Assembly: GCA_016184305.1 (NCBI GenBank)
Contig: JACPCX010000133.1
Location: forward strand, 1 to 16,777
Direction of reading: 5' to 3'
DNA length: 16,777 nt
DNA from: Candidatus Rokuibacteriota bacterium
GTDB lineage: Bacteria > Methylomirabilota > Methylomirabilia > Rokubacteriales > CSP1-6
Part shown: positions 1 to 16,777 of the stretch, piece by piece
How the letters are laid out: each line of letters opens with the position of its first letter
How positions within the stretch are numbered: the stretch's first letter is position 1
Notes under the pieces: generated by a model
Seen by the model: only the letters and a program-made list of their open reading frames with translations
The model's database searches: none
Told to the model about the DNA's origin: nothing
Position numbers and translations under genes: made by a program

Positions 1-2
1 CC

Positions 3-452
3 CATGTCCCGGCCCGCGTGGCGGCCGTGCTGTCCATCGCCCTCGGGCTCTGGATGTTGAAGGACTACTTCATCCCGGACCTCGGGGTCCGCCTTCAGGC
101 GCCCGCCGCGGTCGGCGAATGGGCTCGGGCGTCCGCCCGTCGGATGACGGTGCCCGGTCTCGTCGCCGGCGGTATCGTCATCGGGCTCTGCACCGTTCCG
201 TGCAGTGGCGCCGTCTACCTCGCGGTGCTCTCGCTGCTGGCCGCTCAGGCGGACCGCCTGGCCGGCTTCGGCTATCTCCTCCTCTACAACGTGATGTTCA
301 TCCTGCCCCTGGCCGCGCTCCTCGTCGCCTCCTCCTCCCGCCCCGTGCTGGCCCGCCTCGCCCGGTGGAACCTCGCGCACCGGGAGCGGATACGCCTCGG
401 GCTCGGGACGGGCGTCGTGCTGCTGGGCTTCGCGATCCTGGTCACGGTGTGA
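3..452 (+). CDS. CcdA/DsbD-type cytochrome c biogenesis transmembrane protein, C-terminal part (5' end lies outside the window)
   Basis: The frame is open from the window edge. Several hydrophobic helices and the motif GLCTVPCSGAVYLAVL, followed by YLLLYNVMFILPL, resemble the C-terminal half of CcdA-like proteins. Confidence 0.75.
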   Translation, partial: HVPARVAAVLSIALGLWMLKDYFIPDLGVRLQAPAAVGEWARASARRMTVPGLVAGGIVIGLCTVPCSGAVYLAVLSLLAAQADRLAGFGYLLLYNVMFILPLAALLVASSSRPVLARLARWNLAHRERIRLGLGTGVVLLGFAILVTV

Positions 453-955
453 GGCGCGCGCACCGTCTCGCGCGCCTCGCGGCCGCGCCTGTCGCGCTAG
501 CGCTGCTCCTCCTTGCGGCGGGCTGCGGCCGCCCGCCCAACGTCCCGCCCTCGCTGGCCGGCCTGCCCCTCACCCATACCACGCAGGGCGCGGAGGCGCT
601 CGCGGAGATCGGGCGCCTGCACGGCAAGCGGATCCTGCTGCGGGACGCCTGGGTGGCCCATTACGAGCGCAACGCCGCCGTCGCCATGCTCTACGTCTCG
701 CGCTCGTATCTCGGTCCAGTCGCGCGGTGGCAGTTCTCGCGCATGGTCGACGGGATCGGACGCGGCGCGGCGAACGCCGAGGGGCGCTTCACCCACCTGA
801 GGCACCGAGACGAGGCCGGCATCCCGCTCTATTCGGCGCTCGGGCTCGGCCAAGTCCACTACTTCTACCGCAGCGGGCCGGCCATCGTCTGGCTTGCGGC
901 GGATGCGGAGATTGCCCGCGCAGCGGTCGCCGACACGATCCGTCGGGTCCGTTGA
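449..955 (+). CDS. Hypothetical lipoprotein (168 aa)
   Basis: GTG at 449 overlaps the upstream TGA (GTGA coupling). A basic N-terminus and hydrophobic stretch lead to the lipobox LAAG-C. This is the 3' part of ORF 119..955. Confidence 0.75.
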   Translation: MRRAHRLARLAAAPVALALLLLAAGCGRPPNVPPSLAGLPLTHTTQGAEALAEIGRLHGKRILLRDAWVAHYERNAAVAMLYVSRSYLGPVARWQFSRMVDGIGRGAANAEGRFTHLRHRDEAGIPLYSALGLGQVHYFYRSGPAIVWLAADAEIARAAVADTIRRVR

Positions 956-1117
956 GGGAGCGGCGCGTTCATGGCCGCCAGCATGCAGTTTTGTGGAGCC
1001 GGCCAGCGACCTGATCGCGCACCGGCAACAGAGCACAGAAGCGGGGGCGAGATGAGACTGATCACGAGAGGTGACGATGAACGGCAAGATCTTCCGGAAC
1101 GTCGATGGAGGCATGCG

Positions 1118-1663
1118 GTGGGCCGAGCCTCGCTGACAGTCACGGCCGTCTTCCTCCTCGTGACCGGGGCGCCTTTCGGCGCGGCCGCCGGCGGGGCGAA
1201 ACACCCGTTCGACGCGATGGCTGTCCATCGCCCCGCCGAGCCCTTCGCGGCGCCCGAGCTCGTCTTGACGTCGCTCGATGGGGGGGAGGTGCGGCTCAGC
1301 GCCTTGCGCGGGAAGGTGATCGTGCTTGGCTTCTTCACGACCACGTGACCGAACTGCCGGCGGGAGGCTCCCGCCAAGGCAAAGCTGTACCGGGAGTTCA
1401 GCGGGAAAGGCGTCGAGTTCGTGGGCGTCGCGTTGCGCGAGAACGCGGCGGCGGTCAGGGCCTTCGCCCGCGAGTTCGGGATCGAGTTTCCGCTCTGGCT
1501 CGAGCCGCAGGGCCGGAGTCCTGCCGCCTTCGGCGTATGGGGCCACCCCAGCACGATCCTCATCGACCGGGCGGGCACAGTCGTCGGGCGGGTGCGCGGC
1601 GAGCGCGACTGGGACACGAGAGACGCCCGCCGTCTCCTCCAGTCGCTGCTGGACACGAAGTGA
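1118..1663 (+). CDS. TlpA/ResA-like redoxin (thioredoxin fold), putative selenoprotein with a UxxC motif (TGA at 1346-1348 read as Sec)
   Basis: ORFs 971..1348 and 1421..1663 are in the same frame. Reading through TGA gives APELVLTSLDGGEVRLSALRGKVIVLGFFTTT-U-PNCRREAP...VEFVGV...FGVWGHPSTILIDRAGTVV...GERDW, a complete TlpA-like domain. SD GGAGG (1107-1111) precedes GTG 1118 and a signal-peptide-like N-terminus. ATG 1052 is an alternative start. Confidence 0.88.
1359..1375 (+). promoter_or_regulatory. Putative bacterial SECIS hairpin
   Basis: GGCGGGA-GGC-TCCCGCC forms a perfect 7-bp stem starting 11 nt after the UGA, and the loop begins with G. This matches the known geometry of bacterial SECIS elements. 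Confidence 0.7.
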
Positions 1664-1778
1664 GGGGACGCGTCCGCGCGTGCGCGCCAGGCCAGGGCCG
1701 AGGTGACGGGCACGGCCCGGCGGATGCGTAACGGCGACGCCGGACAAGACGCGCTGGGTGCCACTTCAGGAGGGTGCA

Positions 1779-1985
1779 ATGGCGATCGAGACCGCTGAGA
1801 AATACTGCCCGATCTGTGGGAAGCAGGTGACCGAGCCGACGTTCAACCGCTTCGGCGAATGGGCCTGCTCGGAGGCGCACGCCGACGAGTACGTGAAGGA
1901 GGTGCGAGCCCAGAAGATGCGCGCGGCGGCTCCCGCCCCGGAGCAGCAGCCGCAGCGGCCTCCGCGGCAGATGCGCGGGGGCTGA
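1779..1985 (+). CDS. Small TRASH/YHS-like metal-binding protein (68 aa)
   Basis: SD AGGAGG at 1768-1773 and ATG at 1779. Motif YCPICG-x-RFGEWACSEAH (CxxC-x16-CSxxH). A paralogous domain is present in 2327..2869. Confidence 0.8.
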   Translation: MAIETAEKYCPICGKQVTEPTFNRFGEWACSEAHADEYVKEVRAQKMRAAAPAPEQQPQRPPRQMRGG

Positions 1986-2189
1986 GCGCGGAAGCGGAGG
2001 TATGCGGTGAACAGCCCCGCACCCTCCACGCCGATCGTGAGGGACAGTGCGGATGTCGAGCCGCGTGCGGTCTGATCCCGGGCGGCGCCGTGGCGGCGCC
2101 TCCCGGGACCGCGTCGGCCGGAGATCCGTGAGTTGAGCTGGCGGACACGGCCGCGGACGCGGACTACGAGGGCCGGGTTACGGCGCAGC

Positions 2190-2273
2190 GGGCGCTTGCC
2201 GAAGATGCCGGCGCTGGGCGTCACGAAGGGGCAGGCGCGCACGTCGGTGGACTACGTGATGAGCCTGAAGTAA
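2190..2273 (+). pseudogene. Possible C-terminal remnant of a c-type cytochrome
   Basis: The frame ending at TAA 2271-2273 reads LPKMPALGVTKGQARTSVDYVMSLK*, resembling the MP axial-ligand motif and C-terminal helix of class I cytochromes c. No CxxCH or credible start lies upstream in frame. Confidence 0.4.
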
Positions 2274-2326
2274 TGACCACACGGAGGCGTAAACGCGTGA
2301 AGCGAGATAGACGAGGAGGAGTGGAC

Positions 2327-2869
2327 ATGACTGAGTCATCGCGGGACAGATCATCACGGGAAGGCAACGGACAGCACATCGCACTCTCTGTGGTGCCGGT
2401 CGCTTCCAGGAACGGGCCACCACCGCTCCAGGCGGCAGGCCAGGCGCGGTACTGCGCGTTCTGCGGCGCGGAAGTCGGTCAGGAGGGCGCGCCGGAGCGC
2501 TTCGGCGAGATCTTCTGCTCCGACGCGCATGCCGAGGAGTTCCTCACAGGCGTGCGGGCGGTCCGGGGCGAGGGTGCCGTCGCGGGTGGCGCCGAGATCC
2601 AGCGCACGGGCGAGACGGCCCCGGAGCAGCCGACCGGCGCCGCAAAGCCCTGGGACTGGAAGATGGCGCTCAAGATGGCCGCCTGCTGCGGCGCGCCTGT
2701 CCTGGCCCTCGTCGTCCTCGCCGGCGGTGGAGGCGCCCTGCTCGGCGCGGCCGGATCCCTCCTCCCCGTGCTGGCGTTCCTTGCGTGTCCAATCGGCATG
2801 TACTTCATGATGCGCGGCATGTCGAAGGGCCATCAGCAACAGCCGAAGGACAAAGATCAAGGCAAGTGA
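2327..2869 (+). CDS. Membrane protein with a TRASH-like domain, a CC-containing helix and a DUF2933-like C-terminus (180 aa)
   Basis: SD GAGGAGGAG precedes ATG 2327. Contains YCAFCG...RFGEIFCSDAH, then AACCGAPVL, then LLPVLAFLACPIGMYFMMRGM (the DUF2933-type LACP..M.FM pattern). Confidence 0.8.
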   Translation: MTESSRDRSSREGNGQHIALSVVPVASRNGPPPLQAAGQARYCAFCGAEVGQEGAPERFGEIFCSDAHAEEFLTGVRAVRGEGAVAGGAEIQRTGETAPEQPTGAAKPWDWKMALKMAACCGAPVLALVVLAGGGGALLGAAGSLLPVLAFLACPIGMYFMMRGMSKGHQQQPKDKDQGK

Positions 2870-2995: not shown

Positions 2996-3415
2996 ATGCG
3001 CGCCGTCCGTCGCCTCACACTGGTGGCTGTCGGCACGCTGCTGTCCCTCGGCACCCCCGTGGAGGCTACCCACGACGTGACCCACCGCTATGTGGTGCTC
3101 GGATATGTCCGGGACGGGGCGCACCGGCCCATCGCGGGCCTCACGGTCGCGGTGGTCCGCGAGAAGACCGGGTTGTCCTACCTCACCGAGGCAGACGCCG
3201 AAGGCTTCTACCTCGTTATCGTCCATCTGCAGGACGAGGACCTCTTGGACGCCCTGCGAGTGACCGCCGGGCGGGCGACGATTCGCATCGAGGCCCGGTT
3301 CAACCCCCTGAACTCTCGGAGCCATCGAGGGACGCGGGTCGACTTCACCGGGAGCGCGGCGGTGGAGCGGCAGGAGACATTCGGTGCGACGGTCGACGAC
3401 TACCTGAGGCGGTAG
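2996..3415 (+). CDS. Exported hypothetical protein, carboxypeptidase-regulatory-like beta-sandwich (139 aa)
   Basis: SD GGAGG at 2981-2985. Signal peptide ends in VEA. Pattern GYVRD..HRPIAG..V......TG.......DAEGFY. Confidence 0.65.
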   Translation: MRAVRRLTLVAVGTLLSLGTPVEATHDVTHRYVVLGYVRDGAHRPIAGLTVAVVREKTGLSYLTEADAEGFYLVIVHLQDEDLLDALRVTAGRATIRIEARFNPLNSRSHRGTRVDFTGSAAVERQETFGATVDDYLRR

Positions 3416-3460
3416 GGGGCCCCGGTGTGGGCAGCAATCACGGGAAGGAGCGCGCGTGAG

Positions 3461-4294
3461 ATGGGGACTTCCGTGAAACAGCTGACGTCCGCTTGGCGTA
3501 TAGGTCGCTGGGTCGTCGTGGTGCTCGTGCTCGCGTTGCTCTTGAAGGCAGTGGCCGATATCCTGCGTGGCGCGCCCGGCGGTCATAATGTCCCGTTCGA
3601 GTACTGGTACGGGCACTGGCGGCAGGCTCTCGTCCTCTCGGCGGTCTTCCTCGCCTTCCTGCTGGGGTTCGCCCGGCCCCGGCGCCGGGGCGAGTGGCGG
3701 AACGCCGGGCTCTCGGCGGCATTCTTGATCTCGCTCTTCACCGAGATGTTCGGAATCCCGTTGACCATCTACCTGCTCGCACCTCTGCTCGGCGTTCCGG
3801 CGTCTGCGTTCGGGATGAACGAGAGCCACCTGTGGGCCCTTGCTCTGGATCGCCTCGGTCTGCTCCCGCTGCAGGCCGGGGTCTACCTGGTCATGACGGT
3901 AAGTGTCGTCCTCATCGCGATCGGTCTCTCGCTGCTCGCCGTTGGCTGGGCCACCGTCTATCGGGGACGGGATCGGTTGGTGACGGACGGTATCTACCGC
4001 TACCTCCGGCACCCTCAGTACCTCGGCCTGATGCTGATCGTCTTCGGCTTCAACATCATGTGGCCGACTGTCCTCACCCTCCTGATGGCGCCGGTGCTCA
4101 TCGTCATGTATCTCCGCCTGGCGCGCCGCGAAGACGAGGAGCTGGCGACGTTCTTTGGCGAGACGTTCTTGGACTACGCCGCCCGGACGCGGGCGTTCCT
4201 TCCATGGGGGCGAGGCCGAGCGGTGCCGCCCCGCGGCACGCCGGAACGCCGTCCCCGGGATGCCGCAACGCGCGCAGGCGGGGAGCAAGAATGA
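3461..4294 (+). CDS. Isoprenylcysteine carboxylmethyltransferase (ICMT/PEMT, Ste14-like) family membrane protein
   Basis: Motifs LFTEMFGIPLTIYLL, ESHLW, LVTDGIYRYLRHPQY and ARREDEEL...FGETFLDY. Start is uncertain (3425, 3461 or 3473). Confidence 0.88.
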   Translation: MGTSVKQLTSAWRIGRWVVVVLVLALLLKAVADILRGAPGGHNVPFEYWYGHWRQALVLSAVFLAFLLGFARPRRRGEWRNAGLSAAFLISLFTEMFGIPLTIYLLAPLLGVPASAFGMNESHLWALALDRLGLLPLQAGVYLVMTVSVVLIAIGLSLLAVGWATVYRGRDRLVTDGIYRYLRHPQYLGLMLIVFGFNIMWPTVLTLLMAPVLIVMYLRLARREDEELATFFGETFLDYAARTRAFLPWGRGRAVPPRGTPERRPRDAATRAGGEQE

Positions 4295-4722
4295 CACTGC
4301 TGCCCCGCTGGCGCTTGGATTTGCTCTCCGGGTTGATCTTCTGGCTGGCGACGATCCCGTGGGTGGCGCCGACGATGCTGCACAATGGCGACGTGCCGTG
4401 GCCACTGGCCGGGGCTGTACTGCTCGCTCTCTCCGGCTACCTGGCCCTCTACCCGGCAGCCTTCTGCTGGCTCCTCGGCGGGACCCCGCTGCGCTCGAGC
4501 GCTGCGTACGTGGCCGTCGCGGCGAGCGGCACGATTCTGTTCACGCCAGGCTTCTGGGTTGCGGTGATCGTCGGCATCGTGCCCCGCATTCGCCCGCCGG
4601 TCAGGCAGAGCAAGCAGTCTCGCTCGAACGCGGCCCTCGATGTGCTCCGTCAACCGTACGCGCACGGAGAGATCAAGAGCGAGGAGTTCGAGGCGAGGAC
4701 AGGCGACCCCCGGGGCGGTTAG
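4291..4722 (+). pseudogene. Chimeric or degenerate ORF: Lnt N-terminal membrane fragment fused in frame to a SHOCT-domain C-terminus
   Basis: ATG 4291 overlaps the upstream stop (ATGA). GLIFWLATIPWVAPTM..GDVPWPLA..LLALSGYLALYPAAF aligns by eye with the Lnt at 8711..10189 (GMVFYPLNLSWVTHAM..GGLSWAL..LLLSLYLAVYVGVF). The C-terminal ALDVLRQPYAHGEIKSEEFEAR is SHOCT-like. Confidence 0.65.
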
Positions 4723-4725: not shown

Positions 4726-6519
4726 GTGCTCTCATCCGTGCCTGCCTCCGGCGAACAGAGGGCGACGCTCCGCCGCCTCCGGGCGCTCTCGATCGTCACG
4801 ATGACCGCCTTCCTCGTCGTCATCGGCCAGCTCTGGTATCTCCAGGTTCTCGAGGGATCGCGCCTCGGCGAGCTGGCCGACCGGAACCGGATTCGTGTGC
4901 GGCCTCTGCCCGCACCGCGAGGCATCGTCTCCGACCGGAACGGCGTCCCGCTCGTGGACGCGCGCCCCGCCTTCACCGTCTCCGTCGTCCCCCGCGAGCT
5001 CGAGGATCGCCAGACCGTGCTCGGTACGCTTTCGGTCCTGCTCAAGATCCCTTACGCGGAGCTCGACCGAGCGCTCGATGCGGCGCCCCCCGCCTCGCCC
5101 TGGCCCGTGCGCGTCCGTCGCGGGTTGACCTTCGAGGAGGTCATCCCGCTCGAAGAGCGGCGAGCGGGGCTGCCCGGCGTGACGGTCGCGCTCGAGCCCC
5201 GACGCGCCTACCCGTCGGGCCGCTTAGCCGCGCACCTCCTCGGGTACGTGCGCGAGGCGAGCCAGGAGCAGCTTCGCGACGGGCGCTACCGGCCGGGCGA
5301 CCTCGCGGGGCAGAGCGGGATCGAGCGAATGCTCGACGAGCTCCTGCGCGGGCGCGACGGCGGTGAGCAGGTGGAGGTGGACGTGTCCGGGCGCCCGCTT
5401 CGGATCCTCGAGGGGCGCGCGCCGCAACCGGGCGCGGATGTCACCACGACGTTCGACCGGCGACTCCAGGAGGTGGCGGAGCGCGCATTGGGCGACGCCG
5501 CTGGCGCGGTGGTGGTCATGGACCCACGGAACGGCGACCTCCTGGCACTGGTCTCCACACCGGCCTTCGACCCGGCTCTGTTCACCGGCGCGATCGAGCG
5601 TGACGAGTGGCTGCGGCTGTTGCGCGATCCTCAACATCCCCTCCTGAACCGCGCGTTTCAGGCCTATCCGCCAGGCTCGGTCTTCAAGCTCGTAGTCGCC
5701 GCTGCCGCCCTCCAGGAGAGCCTGATCACCCCTTCCGACAGGCTCCCGTGTCCGGCCAACCTCCAGATCGGGAACCGGACGCTCCGAAACTGGACACGTG
5801 AAGACCAGGGTCCGATCGACATCGAGCGAGCGATCGCGATATCGTGCAACACGTTCTTCTACCGCCTGGGACTGAAGGTGGGCATCGACCAGATCGCCCG
5901 CTACGCCCGTGCCTTCGGGTTCGGTCAGGCGACAGGCATCATGCTCGGCGATGAGAAGGTCGGCGTGCTGCCCGTGGCCACGCGCGCGTCTCTCACCCGC
6001 GCGTGGTCGCCGGGAGATACCGCGAACGTGGCGATCGGTCAGGGGCGCGTACTCGTGACACCGCTCCAGGTCGCGCGGTTCATGGCGGCGATCGCGAACG
6101 GGGGGGTCCTCTGGCGGCCTCGCCTCGTCCAGCGTGTCGACAGCGGCGGCGAGATGGTTCTTTCGGTCGCTCCGGAGGTGACTGGACACGTGGCGCTCGC
6201 TCCCGCCGTCCTCGCCGTCCTCCGTCGAGGTCTCTGGGCCGCGGTCAACGACGGTGGGACGGCCTCTGGGGCGCGGAGCCCCGGCCTTCTCGTCGCAGGA
6301 AAAACCGGGACCGCACAGATCGTCCGGGACAGCGATTCCGCCAAGGGGCAGGATCACGCCTGGTTCGCCGGCTATGCCCCGGCGGATGATCCTCGGATGG
6401 TGGTCGTCGTCCTCGTCGAGCGCGGCGGAACGGGGGGGAGGGTCGCTGCGCCGATCGCCGGCCGCATCTTTCGCGAAATCTTTCACTCCGTGACTCGCGC
6501 CCCCGAGCGCCCTGCGTGA
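4726..6519 (+). CDS. mrdA: Penicillin-binding protein 2 (class B transpeptidase)
   Basis: N-terminal anchor LWYLQV, dimerisation-domain motifs PAPRGIVSDRNG, RAYPSG...HLLGYV and GQSGIE, and catalytic motifs SVFK (SxxK), SCN (SxN) and KTGTAQ, plus DHAWF. Confidence 0.93.
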   Translation: MLSSVPASGEQRATLRRLRALSIVTMTAFLVVIGQLWYLQVLEGSRLGELADRNRIRVRPLPAPRGIVSDRNGVPLVDARPAFTVSVVPRELEDRQTVLGTLSVLLKIPYAELDRALDAAPPASPWPVRVRRGLTFEEVIPLEERRAGLPGVTVALEPRRAYPSGRLAAHLLGYVREASQEQLRDGRYRPGDLAGQSGIERMLDELLRGRDGGEQVEVDVSGRPLRILEGRAPQPGADVTTTFDRRLQEVAERALGDAAGAVVVMDPRNGDLLALVSTPAFDPALFTGAIERDEWLRLLRDPQHPLLNRAFQAYPPGSVFKLVVAAAALQESLITPSDRLPCPANLQIGNRTLRNWTREDQGPIDIERAIAISCNTFFYRLGLKVGIDQIARYARAFGFGQATGIMLGDEKVGVLPVATRASLTRAWSPGDTANVAIGQGRVLVTPLQVARFMAAIANGGVLWRPRLVQRVDSGGEMVLSVAPEVTGHVALAPAVLAVLRRGLWAAVNDGGTASGARSPGLLVAGKTGTAQIVRDSDSAKGQDHAWFAGYAPADDPRMVVVVLVERGGTGGRVAAPIAGRIFREIFHSVTRAPERPA

Positions 6520-6540: not shown

Positions 6541-7218
6541 CTAGTTTCGTGGACTGAGCGGCTCACCGCTGGATGCACGCCTCCCCTCCAGCAACCGCCG
6601 CCACTCCCCCCGGTGTGGAACGAACATGGGAACGCGCCCCCGGTAGTCCAGGTAGCCCTCGCCGAACTGCCCGATCATCCGCGCCTCCTCCTTGCGCGCG
6701 AGCCGGACGTAGGTCCAGACAATGACGGGGAAGAGCGCCACGGTCAGGATCGTCGGCCAGTGGATGAGCTGGCCGAAGAGCGCCAGGAAGATCGCCGCGT
6801 ACTGAGGGTGCCGGACCACGCCATAGAGGCCGGCGGTGGCCAGGCATCCGGCGCGGCTCGCCCGGTAGACCTCGCGCCACCCCTGGATCAGCAGGGAGAT
6901 CCCCAAGAAGACGAAGGCGTACCCGACCATCATCTCGATCATGGCCCCGAGATCGCCCCACCCGAAGAGCGTGGCCCAGAGGTGACCGCTCTCGTGGAGC
7001 CAGGGGATGTCCCAGCCCAGGAACCCGCTCAGAACGTACACGGTGAGAGGGAACCCGTACATCTCGGCATAGAGGGTGATGATGAAGGCCTGCACCAGCC
7101 CCGCCCGGCTCCACTCCCGCCACCCCTTGGGGGCCACGTAGCGGTAGAGCAGCCACGAGGCGATCACCACCATGATCACCGTCAGCTCCCAGAACCCGAT
7201 GTTCGTGGCGCGTTCCAT
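6541..7218 (-). CDS. ICMT/PEMT family membrane protein (second paralog)
   Basis: Motifs LYAEMYGFPLTVY, ESGHLW, GLYGVVRHPQY and ARKEEARM..FGEGYLDY..RVPMF. Confidence 0.9.
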   Translation of the reverse strand: MERATNIGFWELTVIMVVIASWLLYRYVAPKGWREWSRAGLVQAFIITLYAEMYGFPLTVYVLSGFLGWDIPWLHESGHLWATLFGWGDLGAMIEMMVGYAFVFLGISLLIQGWREVYRASRAGCLATAGLYGVVRHPQYAAIFLALFGQLIHWPTILTVALFPVIVWTYVRLARKEEARMIGQFGEGYLDYRGRVPMFVPHRGEWRRLLEGRRASSGEPLSPRN

Positions 7219-8176: not shown

Positions 8177-8491
8177 TCACGGCATGCGCGACGCCCGTCG
8201 CGGGCGTCGCGGAGACTCCGCCATCTCGATCTCCCGCTCCCTCAAGCGCTCGGCGACACAGGGCGGGAGCCCGACACACCGGATCCTGACGCCTCCCTTG
8301 TGCGGCCCACCGAGCTCCTGGACCAACACTTCAGCCCCGGAGGGCTCCACGTCACGGATCGCGGAGAAATCGACGATCACCTCCCCGGTCCGGAAGCGGT
8401 CCAGCTCGTTGAGGAGCTGCATCGCGCCTGACGCGTCGAGGACCCCGCTCAACCGGACGCGCACGTGCATCCGGGACATGTCCACGTTCAT
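8177..8491 (-). CDS. STAS-domain (anti-sigma-factor antagonist-like) protein
   Basis: Pattern VRLSGVLDASGA...VIVDFSAIRDVEPSG...IRCVGL..VAERL. A purine-rich SD-like stretch (GGAAAGGAA) lies upstream. Confidence 0.75.
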   Translation of the reverse strand: MNVDMSRMHVRVRLSGVLDASGAMQLLNELDRFRTGEVIVDFSAIRDVEPSGAEVLVQELGGPHKGGVRIRCVGLPPCVAERLREREIEMAESPRRPRRASRMP

Positions 8492-8544: not shown

Positions 8545-8560
8545 AGCAGGAACGATGCCA
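8545..8560 (-). promoter_or_regulatory. Sigma-54 (-24/-12) promoter for the STAS / nucleotidyltransferase / ICMT unit
   Basis: Minus strand reads TGGCATCGTTCCTGCT, i.e. GG-N10-GC, close to the TGGCAC-N5-TTGCW consensus. It is intergenic and 54 bp upstream of the STAS start. Confidence 0.7.
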
Positions 8561-8660: not shown

Positions 8661-8712
8661 GACATCCTGGCGGAAGGGGCAGGGAGCCGGCCGCGCGCGC
8701 AGACAATTTGTC
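8661..8712. promoter_or_regulatory. Candidate paired binding sites (UAS) for an enhancer-binding protein
   Basis: GACA-TCC-TGGC (8661-8671) and the palindrome GACA-ATT-TGTC (8702-8712) lie 41 bp apart, about 100-150 bp upstream of the sigma-54 site. The same arrangement occurs at 14682-14732. Confidence 0.5.
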
Positions 8713-10292: not shown

Positions 10293-11333
10293 TCACGGTG
10301 TCACGCTGATCCCATTGGGGCCGCGTCCCACCGGGATCGTGGCGACGACCTTCAGGTCCTTCACCTCGATGACCGAGACGGAGTTCGCGTAGGTGTTCGT
10401 GACGTAGGCATAGCGGCCGTCGCCGCTGACCGTGACGCCGTGAGCCCCCGGCCCGGTCTCGACAGTCTTGACGACGCCGAACGTCGCCAGGTCGATCACG
10501 CTCACGGTTGTGCCCGGACTCTTCTTCGTGCCCTGGTTCGCGACGAAGAGAAGGCGGCTGTCGGGCGTGGGGTGAACCTGGATCGGCACCGTTCCAACCC
10601 GCACCTTCCTGATCACCTGACGGGTGGCCGGATCGATGACCGCGACCTGGTCTTCCTGGGACAAGGAGGCGAAGGCCAGGCGGCCGTCGGGGGTGAATCC
10701 CACCTGCGCGGGCCCCTTCCCCGCCGCGATCCTGGCGACCTCGCGGCGAGCTTCGGTGTCGATCACCGAGACTGTCCCACCCTTGAGGTTGGCGACATAG
10801 GCCTCCTTGCCGTCGGGGCTGATCCGGATCCCGTGGGGGTAAGCTCCCACCGGGATCGTGGCCACGAGCCGCCGCGCCAGCGTGTCCACCACGCTGACCG
10901 TGCTCTCACCGCCGTTGGTCACGTACGCGAAGCGGCCGTCCGGCTCCAGCACGACATGGGCAGGATGCAACCCCACCTTGACCCTGGCCACGACCTTGTC
11001 CGTGGCCGTGTCGATGGCCCAGACCTCTCCCGGGTTCCCCATCGCCGCGTGGTCCCGCCTCGGCATTCCCTTGTGCTCCTGCTCCCATTCCTTCCGCTCC
11101 TCGCCGTTGTTGGTGACCCAGGCGAGCTTGCCGTCAGGGGAGACCTGGATGTTGTGAGGGTCGCGGCCCACCGGAACGATCGCGAACCGGGTGAACATCC
11201 GGGCTTCGATCACTGACACGGTATTGGCCCCCTCGTCGGCCACGTACACCTTGTCCGAGGCCGCGCCGGCCGGGCCGGCCCAGCCCACCGCCAGGGTCAA
11301 GGCGGTTCCCGCGATCCAGTGCCACCATCTCAT
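10293..11333 (-). CDS. Exported YVTN/YncE-family beta-propeller repeat protein
   Basis: Signal peptide (AGA-A) followed by about seven repeats of the type P.G....PDG..AYVTN.....VSVID......ATIPVG. SD GAGAGGA. Confidence 0.9.
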   Translation of the reverse strand: MRWWHWIAGTALTLAVGWAGPAGAASDKVYVADEGANTVSVIEARMFTRFAIVPVGRDPHNIQVSPDGKLAWVTNNGEERKEWEQEHKGMPRRDHAAMGNPGEVWAIDTATDKVVARVKVGLHPAHVVLEPDGRFAYVTNGGESTVSVVDTLARRLVATIPVGAYPHGIRISPDGKEAYVANLKGGTVSVIDTEARREVARIAAGKGPAQVGFTPDGRLAFASLSQEDQVAVIDPATRQVIRKVRVGTVPIQVHPTPDSRLLFVANQGTKKSPGTTVSVIDLATFGVVKTVETGPGAHGVTVSGDGRYAYVTNTYANSVSVIEVKDLKVVATIPVGRGPNGISVTP

Positions 11334-11411: not shown

Positions 11412-12295
11412 TCACGGATGACCACGTTCCGCCCGGGAAGAGGTCGCGATCGGAGCCAAGGCCGCGTAGAGCGGCGGCGCGATCTCCGAGACGAGGCTCA
11501 GGGCGTCCTCGAGCGCGCCGCCGCTCTCTGCCGGGATCCCGAGGCGCACCAGCATCGCATCGGCCTGCCGCCGGAACAGGATCTCGCGCATCAGCGCCAG
11601 CCGATAGCGATAGTCGTCGCCGTAGACACGCCGGCCGAGCTGACGCCAGTACACCACCGCCAGCGGCCCGCCCTGCTTGTAGCCGACCACGGCCGGCAAC
11701 CGAACCGGTGTTGCGCCGTTCAAGACTACTGGAATGGCGACGCGGTCGATCCGGCTGGTGTTCGCCTCCGGGAAGATGCGGTCGATGGAGCCCCGCCGCT
11801 TCGGATCGTCCTCGCGCGCGAAGAACGCGACCGAGACCCAGACGACCTGGCCCGCGCGCCGGTAGGTCCGCCGAAGAGCCGCCTTCTCATGAGATAGGGG
11901 AGGGGGATCATGAAGAGCAGGAACCCGATTCCTGACCAGACATGCCGGGCGACGCGGGCGCCGGCCAGGAAGAGCACCGTCCCCAGCAGCATGACGGGCA
12001 GCGACACGCGAGCGAGGAACGGCTCGCCGCCCAGGGACCCGAGCGCGAGGGCGGCGAGCCCGAGCACCACGAGAGGGAGCCCGAGCGGAGAGGACCCCAG
12101 GGCCTCCCGCGCGATCCGCTCCCTGCGAGCCCAGATCAGGTACGCCGCGATGAAGGGAATCGCGAAGCCGTGGGAGAGGTTCGGAAACGCCGCCCACTCC
12201 GCCACCATGGCGGGCACGACCGGCGCGTAGATGCCGAGGATCGCCGCCACCCCGGCCCCGAGCGGAATCCACGGAGCCGAAGGACTCACCGGCAT
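11412..12295 (-). pseudogene. Exosortase / EpsI-family gene with an internal deletion and frameshift
   Basis: ATG 12295 (SD GAGGAG) starts an exosortase N-terminus (W...PNLSHGFAIPFIAAYLIW...FLLFMIPLPY) that breaks off near 11892. A different frame then carries an EpsI-like C-terminal domain (LRRTY....VWVSVAFF...LAVVYW.Q.GRR...DAMLVRL) to TGA 11412. The catalytic exosortase region is missing. Confidence 0.8.
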
Positions 12296-12336: not shown

Positions 12337-12804
12337 TCAGCGGGACCTCCGCGCGATCGCATGGCCCGCGTCCGCCCAGGCGACCATTCCCCCGTCGAGG
12401 TTCCACACGTCCGTGTAGCCGAGCTGGACCAGCGTGCGCGCGGCGATGGCGCTCATGGCCCCGCTCCGGCAATAGACGACGAGCCGCGCTCTCTTGTCGG
12501 CCGGCAGCTTGCTCAGGTTCGCCTCCACCTGGTCGAAGGGGATGAAGAGGTCGGTGGGGCGGATCTCGCCGGCATAGGGGGTGTGGACATTGATCAGCGC
12601 GAAGCTCTTGTTCTCGAGGAGGCGCACGAGTCCGGCCGGGCCCACGTCGGTGTACCTCCCCCCTGCCCCGACGAGCACCGTCCGCGTTTGGGGGCTGGGC
12701 TCGCCGGCCGCCAGCGCCCTCCAGGGACCGGGCAGAATCAGGACCGCCAGGCCAAGAAGCATCGCCCCGACCAGATGGTCCCGCGAGCGTCTCCGGAATG
12801 TCAT
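12337..12804 (-). CDS. Exported rhodanese-like domain protein
   Basis: Signal peptide ending in ALA. Motifs LINVH.PY.GEI..TD, LVVYCRSGAMS (active-site loop) and LGYTDVWNLDGGMVAW. SD AGGAGG. Confidence 0.9.
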   Translation of the reverse strand: MTFRRRSRDHLVGAMLLGLAVLILPGPWRALAAGEPSPQTRTVLVGAGGRYTDVGPAGLVRLLENKSFALINVHTPYAGEIRPTDLFIPFDQVEANLSKLPADKRARLVVYCRSGAMSAIAARTLVQLGYTDVWNLDGGMVAWADAGHAIARRSR

Positions 12805-12942: not shown

Positions 12943-13182
12943 TCACCGGGCCCCGCTGATCCCGTCGGGCGGGGAGGCCGGGCGCGCATCGTTCCTCGTG
13001 CACAGCCCCCAGCAGAGTCCGCCGACGAGCACGAGAAGGCCGAGGGCGGCTGCCGCAGCCGGCCCCAGCCCAAGCCGAGGGACGAGCAGCCAGAAGACGA
13101 GCGGCAGGCTGCAGAGCCAGACCAGGCCGGCGACCATCATCGGCGTGAGCCCCTCCCTTCTCCGCCCCGTGCCGCGCTCCAT
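12943..13182 (-). CDS. Small two-helix membrane protein with Cys residues (79 aa)
   Basis: Starts 1 nt after the lgt stop. Two hydrophobic segments carry WLCSLP and LCWGLC. Confidence 0.65.
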   Translation of the reverse strand: MERGTGRRREGLTPMMVAGLVWLCSLPLVFWLLVPRLGLGPAAAAALGLLVLVGGLCWGLCTRNDARPASPPDGISGAR

Positions 13183-13183
13183 G

Positions 13184-13945
13184 TCACACTCTCCGCGCCG
13201 TCAGCCTCCAGGCATAGGCGGCGAGGGCGGCAGCGAGAAATGCGAGGCTCGCGCCCTGGAGCAGGGACAGGCCGAAGCCGAGGTCCACGCGATCACCCCT
13301 GAAGACCTCCGTGACGAGACGGATCGCCCCATAGCCCCCCAGGTACAGCAGAAAGAGCTGGCCATCGAATGTCGTCCGCTTCCGGAGGGCCCACAGGGCC
13401 GCGAAGAGGGCAAGGTCGAGACCGAGCTCGTAGAGCTGCACCGGATGAAGCGGCACACCCTGCGGGGCCAGCGCGTGAACGTCGGTGAAGGTGACAGCCC
13501 AGGGCACCGCGCTGGGGCTGCCGTACGAGTCTCCGCTGAGGAAGCATCCCACCCGCCCGATCCCCTGGCCCAGGATGAGCGCAGGCGCGAGCGCATCGCC
13601 GATGCGCCAGACGCTCAGACGGCGCGCCCGCGCGTACCAGACCCCGGCGGCGAGACCGGCCAGGAGCCCGCCGTGCAGGGCCAGCCCTCCACGCCAGACA
13701 GCGAGGACGCCGAGAGGATCACGCCAGAGCAGCTCGGGCTCCCACCCCAGCACATAGGCGAGCCGGCCGCCGACGAGGCCGGCCACGATCACCGGGAGCG
13801 CCAGGTCATTGACCGTATCCCGAGGAAGCCCCCTGCGTCGGGCCTCGAGGCTCCCGACCCAGATGGCCACGAACAGAGCGGACGCGAGGAGCACGCCGTA
13901 GCTGTGGAGGCTGAAGCCGCCCACCTGGAGAAGCACCGGGTACAT
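13184..13945 (-). CDS. lgt: Prolipoprotein diacylglyceryl transferase
   Basis: Motifs MYPVL...HSYG, GGRLAYV, WRGGLALHGG, GIGRVGCFLSG, HPVQLYE and RLVTEVFR. SD GGAGG. Confidence 0.93.
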   Translation of the reverse strand: MYPVLLQVGGFSLHSYGVLLASALFVAIWVGSLEARRRGLPRDTVNDLALPVIVAGLVGGRLAYVLGWEPELLWRDPLGVLAVWRGGLALHGGLLAGLAAGVWYARARRLSVWRIGDALAPALILGQGIGRVGCFLSGDSYGSPSAVPWAVTFTDVHALAPQGVPLHPVQLYELGLDLALFAALWALRKRTTFDGQLFLLYLGGYGAIRLVTEVFRGDRVDLGFGLSLLQGASLAFLAAALAAYAWRLTARRV

Positions 13946-14056: not shown

Positions 14057-14260
14057 TCATAGCGGCTTGCCCTCCTCGGTTCCCCGCGACGACTCCGCCC
14101 CGCCGTGGTGACCGCGGTGCATGCCGAAGAAGTGCAGCAGCGGGCAGAGCAGGAGCACGAGGAAGCCGAGCGCCTGCCCTCCGCTTACCTCCACGGCGGG
14201 GAGGTAGAGATACCCCACGACCACGGCGAAGACCAGCATCCAGATCCACCTGCGGGTCAT
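14057..14260 (-). CDS. DUF2933-like small membrane protein (67 aa)
   Basis: SD GGAGG precedes ATG 14260. Contains LVLLLCPLLHFFGMHRGHHG. Confidence 0.8.
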   Translation of the reverse strand: MTRRWIWMLVFAVVVGYLYLPAVEVSGGQALGFLVLLLCPLLHFFGMHRGHHGGAESSRGTEEGKPL

Positions 14261-14378: not shown

Positions 14379-14567
14379 TCAGTGGGATCCGCCATGATGG
14401 CCGGAGGCTGCGGGATCCTTCTTCGCGTCCGCCGACTTGCCCGCCTCCTCCCCGGTGTCGCGATCATGGGAATGGCCGCCCCCGCATCCCATCCCGAACC
14501 GGTGCATGGCCACGAAAACGCCCACGAGCAGGATCCAGATGCCGTAGTTCCTCAGGAAGTCTTCCAT
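14379..14567 (-). CDS. Small single-TM His/Gly-rich protein, DUF2933-related (62 aa)
   Basis: SD AGGAGG (14580-14575). Sequence MEDFLRNYGIWILLVGVFVAMHRFGMGCGGGHSH...GHHGGSH. First gene after a sigma-54 promoter. Confidence 0.75.
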   Translation of the reverse strand: MEDFLRNYGIWILLVGVFVAMHRFGMGCGGGHSHDRDTGEEAGKSADAKKDPAASGHHGGSH

Positions 14568-14592: not shown

Positions 14593-14608
14593 AGCAAGGC
14601 GGGTGCCA
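14593..14608 (-). promoter_or_regulatory. Sigma-54 (-24/-12) promoter
   Basis: Minus strand reads TGGCACCCGCCTTGCT, an exact match to TGGCAC-N5-TTGCW, directly upstream of the SD and ATG at 14567. Confidence 0.85.
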
Positions 14609-14732: not shown

Positions 14733-14765
14733 AGCGGGTTGCAGCCGGAGAATACGGGCCGGGGG

Positions 14766-14806: not shown

Positions 14807-14822
14807 CACACAGACAATCCTG

Positions 14823-15272
14823 CTAACCGCTACGGCGCTGCGCACCGCCGAACGGCATCACGTTCCCCCAGGGGTTGATGTGGAACGTGCGGAACTCTCC
14901 GTCCGGGCCCTTCAGCTCCACGGAGTACATCGTGCCGTGGCCGCCGGTGAACGGTAGGACCCGCTCCACCGTGAAGCCCTTCAGATAGGAATCCGCGTAC
15001 TGCTGAGCCAGCTCCTTGGCCTTCTCCTCCGTGATCTGGACCGGCTGGGCACCGGCGCCAGCCTGTCCGGCCGCGCCGCCCATCATGCCGGGCCCCATCA
15101 TCCCTCCGCCCATCATCCCACCACCCATCGTCCCTCCGCCCATCATCCCTCCGCCCATCATGCCCGGGCCCATGCCGCCGCCCGCCGGACCGCCGCCCAT
15201 CTGTGCCAGGGCCGCGCCGGCGAGCAGCGCCATCACACCTACCGCGAGTGTAACGCTCAGAATGCGCTTCAT
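14823..15272 (-). CDS. Exported Met/Gly-rich protein with a PepSY-like C-terminal domain (149 aa)
   Basis: SD GAGGAGG precedes ATG 15272. Signal peptide ends in ALA-Q, then (GGGMM)n, then ITEEKAKELAQQY...VERV.....MYSVELKGPDG....FHINPWG. Confidence 0.8.
   Translation of the reverse strand: MKRILSVTLAVGVMALLAGAALAQMGGGPAGGGMGPGMMGGGMMGGGTMGGGMMGGGMMGPGMMGGAAGQAGAGAQPVQITEEKAKELAQQYADSYLKGFTVERVLPFTGGHGTMYSVELKGPDGEFRTFHINPWGNVMPFGGAQRRSG
15078..15173 (-). repeat. Coding 15-bp tandem repeat, about 6 imperfect units (GGGMM/GPGMM)
   Basis: Units such as gcccatcatccctcc recur at 15078, 15093, 15108, 15123, 15138 and 15153. Confidence 0.85.
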
Positions 15273-15324
15273 CTTTCCCCTCCTCTGGGTCGATCTGACG
15301 ACTGAGCTTCTGGTTCCCTGTGAC

Positions 15325-15340
15325 AGCATGGCTCGTGCCA
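15325..15340 (-). promoter_or_regulatory. Sigma-54 (-24/-12) promoter
   Basis: Minus strand reads TGGCACGAGCCATGCT (GG-N10-GC, one mismatch to consensus), 53 bp upstream of ATG 15272. Confidence 0.78.
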
Positions 15341-15367
15341 TCCGCACACCAGGCTCGAGCCCTGTGT

Positions 15368-15380
15368 TTTCAGTTGCTTG
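15368..15380 (+). promoter_or_regulatory. Possible IHF site between the sigma-54 promoter and its UAS
   Basis: TTTCAGTTGCTTG has one mismatch to WATCAR-N4-TTR and sits in a locally AT-rich patch. Confidence 0.35.
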
Positions 15381-15432
15381 CTGGGGGGTCCGGAAAGCTG
15401 GATCCAGCCGTTCGTCGGAATTGTCGAGGGCC

Positions 15433-15450
15433 GTCGACATCTGTGTCGAC
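15433..15450. promoter_or_regulatory. Inverted repeat, candidate UAS
   Basis: GTCGACA-TCTG-TGTCGAC has perfect 7-bp arms and lies about 95 bp upstream of the sigma-54 site. It shares GTCGACATC with 8658-8666. Confidence 0.5.
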
Positions 15451-15476
15451 CGGTAGGGCGGGCGGCGACGGAGGCG

Positions 15477-16776
15477 TCACCGGGACGCCTTCTGCGCCGG
15501 CCTCGTCTCCTGCTCCAGACGCTGCCGCGCCTGCGCGAGGACAGAGCCCACATGATCCCGGTCTTCGCGCGAGAGGTCCTGGGCCATCAGCGCCTCCCAT
15601 GTCCTGATCGCCTCGCCGGTCTTCCCCGGTGCCTCGTAGAGGACCAGCCCCTTCCCCCAGAGCGCCTGAGCCAATTTCGGCTCCTGCGACAGCGCTCGGT
15701 CGAATTCGGTGAGGGCCCGGTCCGGATGCCCCCCGCGGAGGAGGATGAGGCCGAGATACGCGCGAGCGCCCGGGTGCTCGGGATCGACCTCCAGTGCACG
15801 CTGAAACAGGCGGAGGGCGCGTCCGAGGTCCTCGGCCTCCATGGCCCGCCGACCCTGGTCGAGCAAGGCCGGCAGATCTCGCGACTCCACGGGAAGCGCC
15901 GCGTTCCCCGTTCCGGTGAGGAACCCCCCAGTCATCGAACCTCCGTCCCGCGATCGCAGCGACCGGGGAAGGAAGAATCCGATCGCCGCGCCGAACCCCA
16001 CGAGGAAGAGCGCCGCGGCCACCCAGCGCCAGGCCCGAAAGGCTGGAGCCCGCGGTGCGCGCTCCGCACGGGGAGCCTCCGTGGCCCCTTCGGCCGGGGC
16101 GCCCCGCGGTGGCTCCTTCAGCGAGGCCAGCGCCAGGGCAGCCCGGGTCTCGTAGAGCGTGCGAGGCCAGCGCCAGGGCAGCCCGGGTCTCGTAGAGCGT
16201 GCGTAGCTCCTCGTAGTCATGAGCGGACAGTGCCCCCGCGCGGTGGTCGAACTCGAGCTCCCGCAGCCCCTCGACGAGCCGCGCCCCCTCGGGCGGCAGC
16301 GCCGAGGGCGCCTCGTGGACCAGGGCACGCACGCGGGCGAGAGCCGCAGCATCCACCGGCGCCGGCGGCGCCGCCCCGCGGCGCGCCCACCGTCTCAGGA
16401 CCCACACGGCCCCACCGAGCCCCATGGCCGCGCCGAGCCCGGGGAGCACCCAGAGCAGCAGACCGAATCCGCGCGCCGCCGGCGAGAGCAGGATCCACTC
16501 GCCGTACTTCGAGACGAAGTAGGCCCGGATCTCGTCGGGGCTCGTCCCGGCCGCGAGCTGATCCGCGATCAGGGCCTTCATCTCCCGGGCCATCTCGGAG
16601 GGCGATTCGGCCACCGACAGGTTCTGGCACACGGGGCAGCGCAGTCCGGCGGCGATCTCGCGCACCGTGGCGTCGAGGTCCTCCTTCGCGCCGGCCGCGG
16701 TCGCGAGGAGCAGCGATCCGACGAGCGCGGCCAGCAACCGGCCCGTCCGGGCTCTACTGGATCGAGCGGTAGTCAC
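15477..16776 (-). pseudogene. ccmH: CcmH (LRCxxC) fused to a CcmI/CycH-like TPR region, frameshifted by a 40-bp duplication
   Basis: LRCPVCQNLSVAESPSEMA...YFVSKYGEWILLSP, a TM helix and LRELEFD..AG.LS..DY..LR lie in one frame, and the TPR repeats lie in another. Removing one 40-bp copy gives a continuous 419-aa ORF. The start is at the window edge and is uncertain. Confidence 0.85.
16121..16200. repeat. Exact 40-bp tandem duplication
   Basis: gcgaggccagcgccagggcagcccgggtctcgtagagcgt occurs at 16121-16160 and again at 16161-16200. Confidence 0.97.
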
Positions 16777-16777
16777 C

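Follow-up and report, generated by a model that had tools for sequence, protein, structure and literature searches.

Copper impairs the acylation of bacterial lipoproteins, cutE being lnt (PMC6538781), and the assembly of c-type cytochromes is a further copper target (PMC4600104). A copper element of Firmicutes has been described that carries lit2 and a second lgt, and for which N-terminal acylation is proposed to lower copper binding (PMC8689077), and islands of the type merR-copA-cupredoxin-DUF2933-ICMT occur in Alteromonas and other Gammaproteobacteria (PMC8478169). Here, we analyse a stretch of DNA of 16,777 nucleotides, hereafter the window, which is the entire contig C70 (16.8 kb) of a 239-contig, 3.2-Mb metagenome-assembled genome (MAG) from Rokubacteria/Methylomirabilota. 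The window carries extra, diverged gene copies for three processes: the acylation of lipoproteins (Lgt and Lnt), the maturation of c-type cytochromes (CcmH/I) and the reduction of thiols in the periplasm (CcdA-type, TlpA-like and rhodanese proteins). Small metal-binding proteins, among them a secreted Met-rich protein, DUF2933 and Cys/His mini-proteins, are encoded alongside. Judged from these genes and from those of related loci, the window is probably a fragment of an accessory, mosaic copper-stress locus that would add spare or hardened envelope-maturation steps to pumps and oxidases; it is from the gene content that we infer a backup function.

The Firmicute element, found in Listeria and Enterococcus (Armbruster et al. 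2019, as cited in PMC8689077), shares with the window the extra acylation genes, including the second lgt, which adjoin genes for a copper pump, a chaperone and an oxidase. The logic proposed for it, namely the blocking of the copper-binding N-terminal amino group of lipoproteins, would be the same as that proposed here. The window differs in coming from another phylum with another type of envelope, in having a Lnt paralogue rather than Lit as the putative N-acylating enzyme, and in the added genes for cytochrome c maturation, CcdA, a selenocysteine (Sec) redoxin and ICMT-family proteins; moreover, copper induction is shown for the Firmicute element, whereas for our locus it would be a prediction. 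The gammaproteobacterial islands share DUF2933 and ICMT-family genes with the window, which lacks the remaining three members, copA, the cupredoxin gene and merR, and has sigma-54-type sites instead; a cupredoxin, MerR and a P-type ATPase are, however, present in related loci. As described (PMC8478169), these islands are without the Lgt, Lnt and Ccm genes carried by the window. Already known, then, are copper islands with DUF2933, ICMT, YHS, CcdA-like and thioredoxin-like genes, and lipoprotein-modifying genes in a copper element of Firmicutes; new are the combination of Lgt, Lnt and CcmF/H/I with copper-island parts in a different phylum, the PEMT-Lnt and CcdA-Lnt gene pairs, and a clade of Lnt sequences with a Ser/Tyr/Tyr signature. 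A further likeness, by description only, is to Scs (suppressor of copper sensitivity) of Salmonella, in which the DsbD-like ScsB and the thioredoxin-like ScsC and ScsD are linked to copper tolerance. Both systems pair a DsbD/CcdA-type transporter with periplasmic or TlpA-like redoxins, but here a selenoprotein takes the place of the redoxin, and the CcdA that adjoins Lnt is short and divergent.

The Lnt of the window has the family and domain structure of E. coli Lnt (CutE), with matches to PF20154 (LNT_N, 145.1 bits), PF00795 (CN-hydrolase, 134.7 bits) and TIGR00546 (378.3 against 132.9 bits). It keeps the Glu and the Lys of the catalytic triad E267-K335-C387 (E. coli numbering), but the Cys is replaced by a Ser encoded by AGC; the sequence reads VISYEV where the E. 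coli enzyme has ICYE, and the top match in the PDB is a chain of the E. coli C387S mutant. The residues W237, E343, Y388 and E389, which are listed as essential in E. coli (PMC3850990), correspond to W229, E327, Y371 and E372 of the window protein, and no variation is seen at W229, E260, K319, E327, Y371 and E372 among 14 Ser-type sequences. Two other positions, 374 and 399, both Tyr in the window, align with I391 and F416 of the E. coli enzyme, I391 being part of the helix that provides the oxyanion hole with its backbone amides (PMC5500888); in addition, the gene is an extra copy outside the cdsA-lnt-prfB context. The initial annotation, made from the letters of the window, had already pointed to two enzymes with a replaced nucleophilic Cys, by Ser in Lnt and by Sec in a redoxin. 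Both replacements stand and both are conserved in relatives, and hence the Ser is not a sequence error.

Among the best 120 homologue clusters, 38 have a Ser nucleophile, and the Glu and Lys are kept in 121 of 121 alignment rows, the window included. In a tree rooted on the Lnt encoded on contig C196 of the same genome (computed with FastTree only, some long branches being flagged), 36 rows make up an all-Ser clade with a support of 99 and deep internal branches; outside it lie a pair of Ser sequences (P0108 and P0118) and a single recent one (P0098), so that at least three changes of nucleophile are needed. Position 374 is Tyr in all 36 rows of the Ser clade and Ile in 81 of the 82 Cys rows, and position 399 is Tyr in the same 36 and Phe in 81 of the 82. 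P0108 and P0118 carry both Tyr residues, and P0098 has Ile and Phe. The Lnt clusters P0098 and P0114 are near-identical, differ in having Ser and Cys, respectively, as the nucleophile, and both have Ile and Phe; the Ser of P0098 reflects a very recent switch, or else an error in the sequence. As far as sequences can tell, the Ser-type Lnt (Ser-Lnt) forms a clade of some age, in which two Tyr changes close to the active site are coupled, and its long-kept intact frame, its essential residues and the coupled Tyr changes argue for a working adaptation rather than decay.

We examined 71 of the 76 Lnt matches in the genomes (leaving out those of G074, G084, G226, G053 and G014:C2). Ser was found in six, those of the window and of genomes G028, G204, G228, G047 and G052, always as E-K-S-Y-Y with the codon AGC, the remainder being E-K-C-I/V-F. 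None of the six is in a housekeeping context, and a Cys-type Lnt is also present in five of the six genomes. A divergent CcdA gene lies directly upstream of the Ser-Lnt gene in G204, G228 and G047 and one gene away in G028; in none of the four accessory loci with a Cys-type Lnt does it take such a place. The lipoprotein gene of the window has orthologues of 57–64% identity directly downstream of Ser-Lnt in G028, G204 and G228, and its product is a candidate private substrate or partner of the enzyme. It has no match in Pfam or NCBIfam; a structure prediction from four sequences gave a mean predicted local distance difference test score of 49.7, too poor for a fold search, and atlas look-ups of this lipoprotein and of the Met-rich protein of the window led to unnamed clusters of hypothetical proteins only. 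The lipoprotein and its orthologues have five invariant His residues.

A Lnt paralogue that naturally has Ser in place of C387 has already been published, namely the mycobacterial BCG_2279c/Rv2262c-2261c, which stands beside a functional Cys-type Lnt (PMC3850990). We liken it to the Ser-Lnt by description only; it did not replace Lnt, and the available part of that report gives no link to copper. Our search of the literature, which did not cover subscription journals, found no Ser-Lnt clade, no Tyr pair and no lnt in copper loci of the phylum. A contig search with the Ser-Lnt alignment returned generic Lnt patterns (at least 80 loci, at most 46% identical, in other phyla) and was not used, and a weak search for a PEMT-Lnt fusion among longer proteins gave one protein of 530 residues with PEMT/ICMT-type domains only. 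It is tempting to see in the Ser-Lnt, with its E-K-S triad and two Tyr residues, a thiol-free and copper-proof N-acyltransferase at the centre of a copper-induced regulon that would renew all thiol-dependent steps of envelope maturation (lipoprotein acylation, haem attachment and disulfide reduction) with metal-hardened parts, the Sec redoxin included; we offer this more specific reading tentatively, and think it rather less probable than not.

The core set of the window, consisting of Lnt, Lgt, PEMT/ICMT-family proteins, CcdA-like proteins, redoxins, CcmH/I, a beta-propeller protein and DUF2933/TRASH-like proteins, recurs in nine other loci of the phylum. Recurrence thus holds for this core but not for the whole inventory, because PBP2, the STAS-domain protein, the nucleotidyltransferase and the Met-rich (GGGMM) protein have no match in the nine loci; rhodanese recurs solely as a domain in G236. 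The window Lnt, used as a query, gave a match at E <= 1e-110 in 9 of 158 same-family genomes, and three genomes of the same genus have only a housekeeping-type Lnt, which is ~43% identical. Together, these results indicate a patchy, accessory distribution. The accessory and housekeeping loci were sorted by context, and their comparison is a description rather than a statistical test; G012 is an unpublished genome, and no conclusion depends on it alone.

Every one of the nine loci has at least one metal-handling family. In G028 (contig C109, Lnt 75% identical), the order is CcdA-PEMT-Lnt(S)-lipoprotein-ICMT, where (S) marks the Ser type, followed by a small Cys/His gene, an HMA-domain ATPase, DUF2933, a small membrane protein, DsbD_2 and CcmF. 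This P-type ATPase has the motifs GMHCAGC, CPC, YN(x4)P and M(x2)SS, a combination that marks Cu(I)/Ag(I) pumps. Only ~120 bp of the window separate the small Cys/His gene from the DUF2933 gene; the G028 orthologues of these two lie on either side of the ATPase gene. G228 (C183) has CcmF, CcmH-CcmI, Lgt, propeller, NfeD, cupredoxin, CcdA, Lnt(S), lipoprotein and ZIP; G204 (C99) has Lgt, propeller, DUF5676, cupredoxin, CcdA, Lnt(S), lipoprotein, SHOCT, cytochrome c, OmpA and a Sec redoxin. A run of ~15 co-directional genes in G014 (C58; L039 2200-14917) comprises CcmF, CcdA, ICMT, redoxin, YHS, CcmH-CcmI, Lgt, DUF192, Lnt, propeller, DUF3105, cytochrome c, CopC, a methyltransferase and a Sec redoxin, and is the most complete form of the cluster that we observed. 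G023 (C72) has Lnt, OmpA and CopC-CopD, together with PEMT, a CarboxypepD_reg-like gene, a TRASH-DUF2933 fusion and redoxins; G236 (C30) has propeller, a cupredoxin/COX2-like gene, a glutaredoxin-like gene, Rieske, a double rhodanese, TRASH-DUF2933, PEMT, Lgt, Lnt and an ISL3 transposase, with MerR farther away. G047 (C34) has a CDF gene fused to Band 7, CcdA, Lnt(S) and MerR, and G052 (C33) has Lnt(S), MerR and a CPC ATPase. Finally, G012 (C183) has ICMT, a multicopper oxidase, Lgt, redoxins, TRASH-DUF2933, a CarboxypepD_reg-like gene, two Sec redoxins, PEMT, Lnt, OmpA, CtaG, CusB/RND/OEP, a second multicopper oxidase, DUF411 and an HMBD ATPase.

The dominant families among these neighbours are copper-specific: multicopper oxidase, CopC/D, cupredoxin, CtaG and the Cu(I)-type ATPase. 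The initial annotation had left the metal unproven, no transporter or oxidase being in view; the copper genes of the related loci make copper the most likely metal, with silver still a candidate. A response to another soft metal or thiol poison (silver, mercury, cadmium or zinc), or a role in selenium or sulfur chemistry, would fit the MerR regulators and the CDF, ZIP and chromate transporter neighbours as well as the rhodanese and Sec proteins of the cluster; we nevertheless hold such a reading to be improbable, given the dominance of multicopper oxidases, CopC/CopD, cupredoxin and CtaG, the ATPase with Cu(I)-type motifs, and the fact that no mer or ars genes were seen adjoining the core. The same neighbours dispose of the earlier proposal that the module works instead of exporting metal: in the relatives its genes are contiguous with those for a CopA-type ATPase, RND/CusB, multicopper oxidases and CopCD, so that the module accompanies metal exporters and is not a replacement for them.

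The gene content could also be read as an assembly line for envelope proteins that carry copper or haem (a lipid-anchored cupredoxin, cytochrome c or oxidase parts), in which dedicated CcmF/H/I, a CcdA and TlpA path, copper chaperones and a private Lgt and Lnt would mature their own clients, rather than as a stress backup. TlpA reduces copper-site proteins in rhizobia, and possible clients are at hand, with cupredoxins in G204, G228 and G236, cytochrome c in G204 and G014, CopC in G014 and CtaG in the unpublished G012. The CcmH part of the window (97 bits) has as its best NCBIfam match the NrfF haem-lyase subunit (51.6 bits, under the cut-off), and the conserved lipoprotein directly after Ser-Lnt in three genomes would also suit an assembly line. 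However, no single client enzyme is conserved across the 10 loci, and those partners that are conserved belong to detoxification (CopA-type ATPase, RND/CusB, multicopper oxidases and MerR). Furthermore, copper efflux islands are known to be accompanied by DUF2933 with ICMT (PMC8478169), and we therefore think an assembly line unlikely, although it is the foremost of the alternatives considered.

All open reading frames of the genome were scanned with phmmer; paralogues were found for 17 of 24 queries from window genes. A second Lgt is encoded on C77, where its gene adjoins tolQ/tolR, and the second Lnt is that on C196, in the context ribBA-ribH-nusB-(phosphoesterase)-lnt-prfB-lysS. Another PBP2 gene comes after mreB-mreC-mreD on C67, and C187 has a ccm operon with ccmF and a TPR ccmI. 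The check for separate housekeeping lgt, lnt and mrdA genes suggested in the initial annotation thus had a positive outcome, and the window does not hold the sole housekeeping copies. In three other families of the class, the housekeeping Lnt stands in the order rpsB-tsf-pyrH-frr-cdsA-lnt-prfB-lysS (L129, L138 and L141), and no metal gene was found among the open reading frames scanned around these three loci. The PBP2 of the window lies outside an elongasome context, without mreBCD or rodA, its neighbours being the lnt relic and the convergent ICMT gene. PBP2 matches at E <= 1e-100 were found in 144 of 159 family genomes, nearly all single-copy and 55–63% identical to the window protein, and no closer orthologue was found in the family genomes searched; the extra PBP2 is thus peculiar to contig C70 and should not be taken for a member of any conserved module.

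In the redoxin gene, an in-frame TGA takes the place of the first Cys codon of the CxxC redox motif, with thioredoxin-fold matches on both sides of it; the product scores 89.5 bits against the ResA subfamily and 51 bits against the WAxxUGC selenoprotein model. The TGA is kept in the TlpA-like orthologues of G012, G204 and G014 and is thus not a sequence error. A hairpin resembling a selenocysteine insertion sequence (SECIS) follows, and is conserved in four orthologues with two pairs altered on both sides; as both covarying pairs are also found in G014, this support is independent of G012. Folded as a single sequence, the hairpin has a z of −1.55. The source genome has selD, itself with an in-frame TGA; selA, selB and tRNA-Sec were not found in the 88.8%-complete MAG, and a selB match above the cut-off was obtained for 10 of 12 relatives, the three same-genus genomes all among them. 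Reading the TGA as selenocysteine is therefore well supported by these sequence comparisons. With the UxxC oxidoreductases of NF041054 (ResA-like, WAxxUGC), the protein shares a thioredoxin fold, a membrane anchor and Sec as the first residue of the redox motif, but its motif is TTT-U-PNC and its 51 bits compare with a cut-off of 300, so it does not belong to that family. A second type of UxxC redoxin, peroxiredoxin-like with GAG-U-xMC, occurs in the same clusters in G012 (L037 6674) and G023 (L038 12172).

In the initial annotation, the minus-strand part of the window was said to be under sigma-54 promoters. We found one perfect and one 1-mismatch site of the form TGGCAC-N5-TTGC, both on the minus strand and both before small metal-protein genes that have a Shine–Dalgarno sequence; a 2-mismatch site (8546-8560) precedes the STAS gene, and no site was found for the Lnt, Lgt or propeller genes. 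The claim thus survives for the small metal-protein genes and not for the minus strand as a whole. The perfect site, TGGCACCCGCCTTGC, is conserved in position in G028, which belongs to another family: the orthologue of the small Cys/His gene has TGGCAAAGGGCTTGC upstream at a similar distance, and the ATPase gene is next. The source genome, with 100 such sites in 3.2 Mb (16 of them perfect), has rpoN and ~19 full-length sigma-54 activators, none of them encoded in the window. Sigma-54 control is thus predicted, from these sites, for the small metal-protein genes only. Paralogues of the Met-rich protein, of the STAS and CcdA proteins, of the rhodanese and of the propeller (on C173, C62, C160 and C123) share contigs with sigma-54 activator genes, and C173 has a perfect sigma-54 site that is oriented away from the paralogue there.

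The features of the window are collected in Table 1; the gene map is based on codon-position G+C, Pfam, NCBIfam and translations.

Table 1. Features of the 16,777-nucleotide window, in window coordinates.
Feature	Position	Strand	Remarks
CcdA/DsbD-type thiol:disulfide membrane transporter, 3' part	3..452	+	cut by contig end
Lipoprotein without known family	449..955	+	lipobox LAAGC; several invariant His and Tyr
TlpA/ResA-like selenocysteine redoxin	971..1663	+	TGA at 1346-1348, T-U-P-N-C; start codon uncertain
SECIS-like hairpin, 7-bp stem	1359..1375	+	11 nt past the TGA
Small Cys/His protein	1779..1985	+	TRASH/YHS-like motif C-x2-C...C-x3-H
Cys/His domain fused to DUF2933-like membrane tail	2327..2869	+	DUF2933 21.7 bits (cut-off 21)
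Secreted CarboxypepD_reg-like protein	2996..3415	+	25.2 bits, under cut-off
PEMT/ICMT-family membrane methyltransferase	3425..4294	+	PEMT 45.9 bits, ICMT 32.2 bits
lnt relic, N-terminal membrane part only	4306..4494	+	where relatives have PEMT then Lnt
Extra PBP2 (MrdA)	4726..6519	+	TIGR03423 622.8 against 455; SVFK, SCN and KTG intact
Second ICMT/PEMT-family methyltransferase	6541..7218	-	paralogue of the 3425..4294 product; convergent with PBP2
Sugar-phosphate nucleotidyltransferase	7228..8160	-	Pfam, NCBIfam; not recurrent
STAS-domain protein	8177..8491	-	Pfam; not recurrent
Accessory Ser-Lnt	8711..10189	-	S370 (AGC, 9080-9082), Y374, Y399
Secreted YncE-like beta-propeller	10293..11333	-	Pfam, NCBIfam
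Exosortase/EpsI relic	11430..12277	-	internal deletion, out-of-frame junction
Exported single-domain rhodanese	12337..12804	-	46 bits; active-site Cys present
Small membrane protein	12943..13182	-	G028 orthologue 41% identical, adjoining DUF2933
Accessory Lgt	13184..13945	-	PF01790 217.7 bits; TIGR00544 147.9 against 118.9
DUF2933 (PF11666) small membrane protein, His-rich tail	14057..14260	-	42.6 bits
Small one-helix Cys/His-rich protein (MEDFLRNYGIW...)	14379..14567	-	from translation
Sigma-54 site, perfect consensus	14594..14608	-	27 nt before ATG of small Cys/His gene
Secreted Met-rich protein, GGGMM repeats	14823..15272	-	C-terminal domain of no known family
Sigma-54-like site, 1 mismatch	15326..15340	-	54 nt before ATG of Met-rich gene
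CcmH-CcmI fusion gene	15477..16776	-	frame broken by 40-bp duplication; 5' end off contig

The inventory given in the initial annotation (Lgt, Lnt, an lnt relic, an exosortase relic, PBP2, CcdA-like, TlpA-like, CcmH, rhodanese, DUF2933 and GGGMM proteins) is borne out by profiles and alignment, with some refinements. The CcmH is not a stand-alone gene but the front half of a broken CcmH-CcmI fusion, which is a single open frame in G228 and G014. The proteins called TRASH-like do resemble that family in their motif, but no window protein matched the TRASH/YHS model even at E up to 5, and the resemblance is one of motif only; a true YHS gene (56.4 bits) lies inside the G014 cluster. The smaller of the two plus-strand Cys/His proteins has weak zinc-ribbon matches only and is a paralogue of the N-terminal domain of the Cys/His-DUF2933 fusion, which has orthologues in G012, G023 and G236; the one-helix Cys/His-rich protein of the minus strand has no DUF2933 match. 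A cytochrome c relic at 2076-2273, suspected by eye, was rejected, there being no Pfam match and none to the cytochrome c of G204.

The CcdA-like protein scores under the cut-offs with DsbD_TM (18.4 bits) and SfLAP (20.7 bits), but its TxPC motif aligns with TPCVGP of the bona fide CcdA of the same genome. The family has both 'PC' motifs, NPCAFT and TxPCSG aligning with SPCVLP and TPCVGP of CcdA, and the window copy, with its sub-cut-off profile scores, retains the second motif only; its orthologues directly upstream of Ser-Lnt in G204, G228 and G047 are full-length. The PEMT/ICMT protein upstream of the lnt relic is the best-conserved protein among the more distant loci, being 64–69% identical in G028, G012, G023 and G236; next to its orthologue comes Lnt directly in G028, G012 and G023, and Lgt then Lnt in G236. 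Lgt matches PF01790 over its full length (positions 1-240 of 240) and is 75% identical in G228 and 43–51% identical in G012, G236 and G014. The propeller is 82–83% identical in G204 and G228, where it adjoins Lgt, and the CarboxypepD_reg-like protein has orthologues of 55–59% identity in G012 and G023. The Met-rich gene contains a 15-nt repeat (15076-15161).

The description of the window as partly eroded holds for the lnt and exosortase relics, and not safely for ccmH/I. The lnt relic shares 60% identity with residues 90-156 of the G236 Lnt and 38% with the window Lnt, with LNT_N at 25.7 bits (under the cut-off), which identifies it as a remnant of a PEMT-linked Cys-type Lnt; a contig from an independent study covers the relic (4210-4707) with one difference. 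The exosortase relic joins exosortase residues 48-181 and EpsI residues 62-216 in different frames, and its match to profile positions 2-119 of 254 falls short of the complete domain of eight transmembrane segments. An intact exosortase and EpsI are encoded on C144 (L155 2335-7101), followed by DUF3105, a short multicopper oxidase and CcdA; this cluster links exosortase genes to copper genes, and DUF3105 is also part of the G014 cluster. In CcmH-CcmI, the frame is lost at a perfect 40-bp tandem duplication (16121-16200), but contigs from runs X5, X6 and X10, of three other studies, join 16120 to 16161 without it, so that the duplication is strain-specific or an assembly artefact. In X6 and X10, 2005 is joined to 2286, with a side of 33 letters, and ~280 bp between the two TRASH-like genes (2006-2285) are absent or replaced.

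Such damage could mean that the genes have no functional unity, the window being a recombination-prone accessory region, or a mis-binned piece, with piled-up duplicates and relics. Besides the two relics and the one broken frame, this would account for a gene order that differs in each genome read, for the ISL3 transposase adjoining Lnt in G236, for PBP2, STAS and nucleotidyltransferase genes that are in no other locus, and for the stretch 2006-2285 lacking or replaced in other strains. Set against this, about ten gene families are found together again and again, in no fewer than five genera and two taxonomic families, and in one case as a co-directional run of ~15 genes; the tight pairs CcdA-Lnt(S), PEMT-Lnt and Lgt-propeller are kept; and the sequence is nearly unchanged in runs of 16 studies. 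We consequently give a chance assemblage little credence.

The near-identical sequence in these studies comes from contigs of groundwater and soil runs, and the nearest Lnt homologues are labelled Candidatus Rokubacteria, Methylomirabilales or NC10 in their sources. The MAG has a completeness of 88.83% and a contamination of 1.91%, and contig C70 has a G+C of 69.3%, compared with 70.2% for the genome; its tetranucleotide distance (rank 87 of 123) is no outlier, which is a weak test of mis-binning. At 3.2 Mb the MAG is smaller than the three same-genus genomes (4.7–5.4 Mb), and much of the genome may therefore be unassembled. The MAG lacks selA, selB and tRNA-Sec despite its TGA-bearing selD; this and its small size suggest that the true completeness may be well under the marker-based 88.8%. 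Rfam gave no family match in the window, and scans of the window for sigma-70 promoters and terminators were at chance level.

A number of observations weigh against a copper-stress backup. The window itself has no copper pump, oxidase, sensor or activator, and the related loci have other-metal neighbours (ZIP, CDF and chromate transporter) too. The sigma-54 sites are no more numerous than expected by chance, two compared with 0.81 expected, and 38 of 200 shuffles reach two. As a contig of a binned MAG, C70 may have come from a related organism. With regard to the Ser-Lnt, the four accessory loci of G012, G023, G014 and G236 have a Cys-type Lnt in a copper context, which means that Ser is not required there, and no second Lnt was found in G204 (90% complete). 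The E. coli C387S mutant has low activity according to one report (PMC10313180) and, according to another, forms the acyl-enzyme with no detectable activity (PMC3850990); the mycobacterial Ser paralogue BCG_2279c, in the latter report, failed to replace Lnt. By analogy with this weak mutant and non-replacing paralogue, the Ser-Lnt may have a role other than N-acylation.

If the window is nevertheless a fragment of a copper-stress locus, as we think probable, its genes may act as follows. Cu(I) flooding the periplasm would attack thiols, namely the catalytic Cys of Lnt, the lipobox Cys, the CxxCH of apocytochromes and the CxxC of redoxins, and the locus would provide fresh or hardened versions of the thiol-dependent steps. 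In Lnt, the thiol would be exchanged for Ser, backed by the two new Tyr side-chains next to the oxyanion hole; in the redoxin, Cys would be exchanged for Sec, and a dedicated CcdA would supply reducing power. Lipoproteins, once fully N-acylated, would also no longer expose the free amino group that binds copper. The predicted sigma-54 promoters would drive at least the operons of small metal proteins, and the module would act alongside copper export; PBP2, STAS, the nucleotidyltransferase and the relics may be mere passengers, carried in a region that has undergone much rearrangement.

It is largely in the envelope that copper kills bacteria, and the known defences are pumps, oxidases and chelators. 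The cluster suggests a second line of defence, the replacement of the vulnerable enzymes themselves, and the Ser-for-Cys Lnt offers a direct test of whether the Lnt thiol is a copper target; if it works, it would be a rare natural enzyme of the nitrilase superfamily without its cysteine. In addition, the tight pairing of PEMT/ICMT with Lnt offers a clue to the ICMT-family methyltransferases, as yet unexplained, that are found with copper islands in many phyla.

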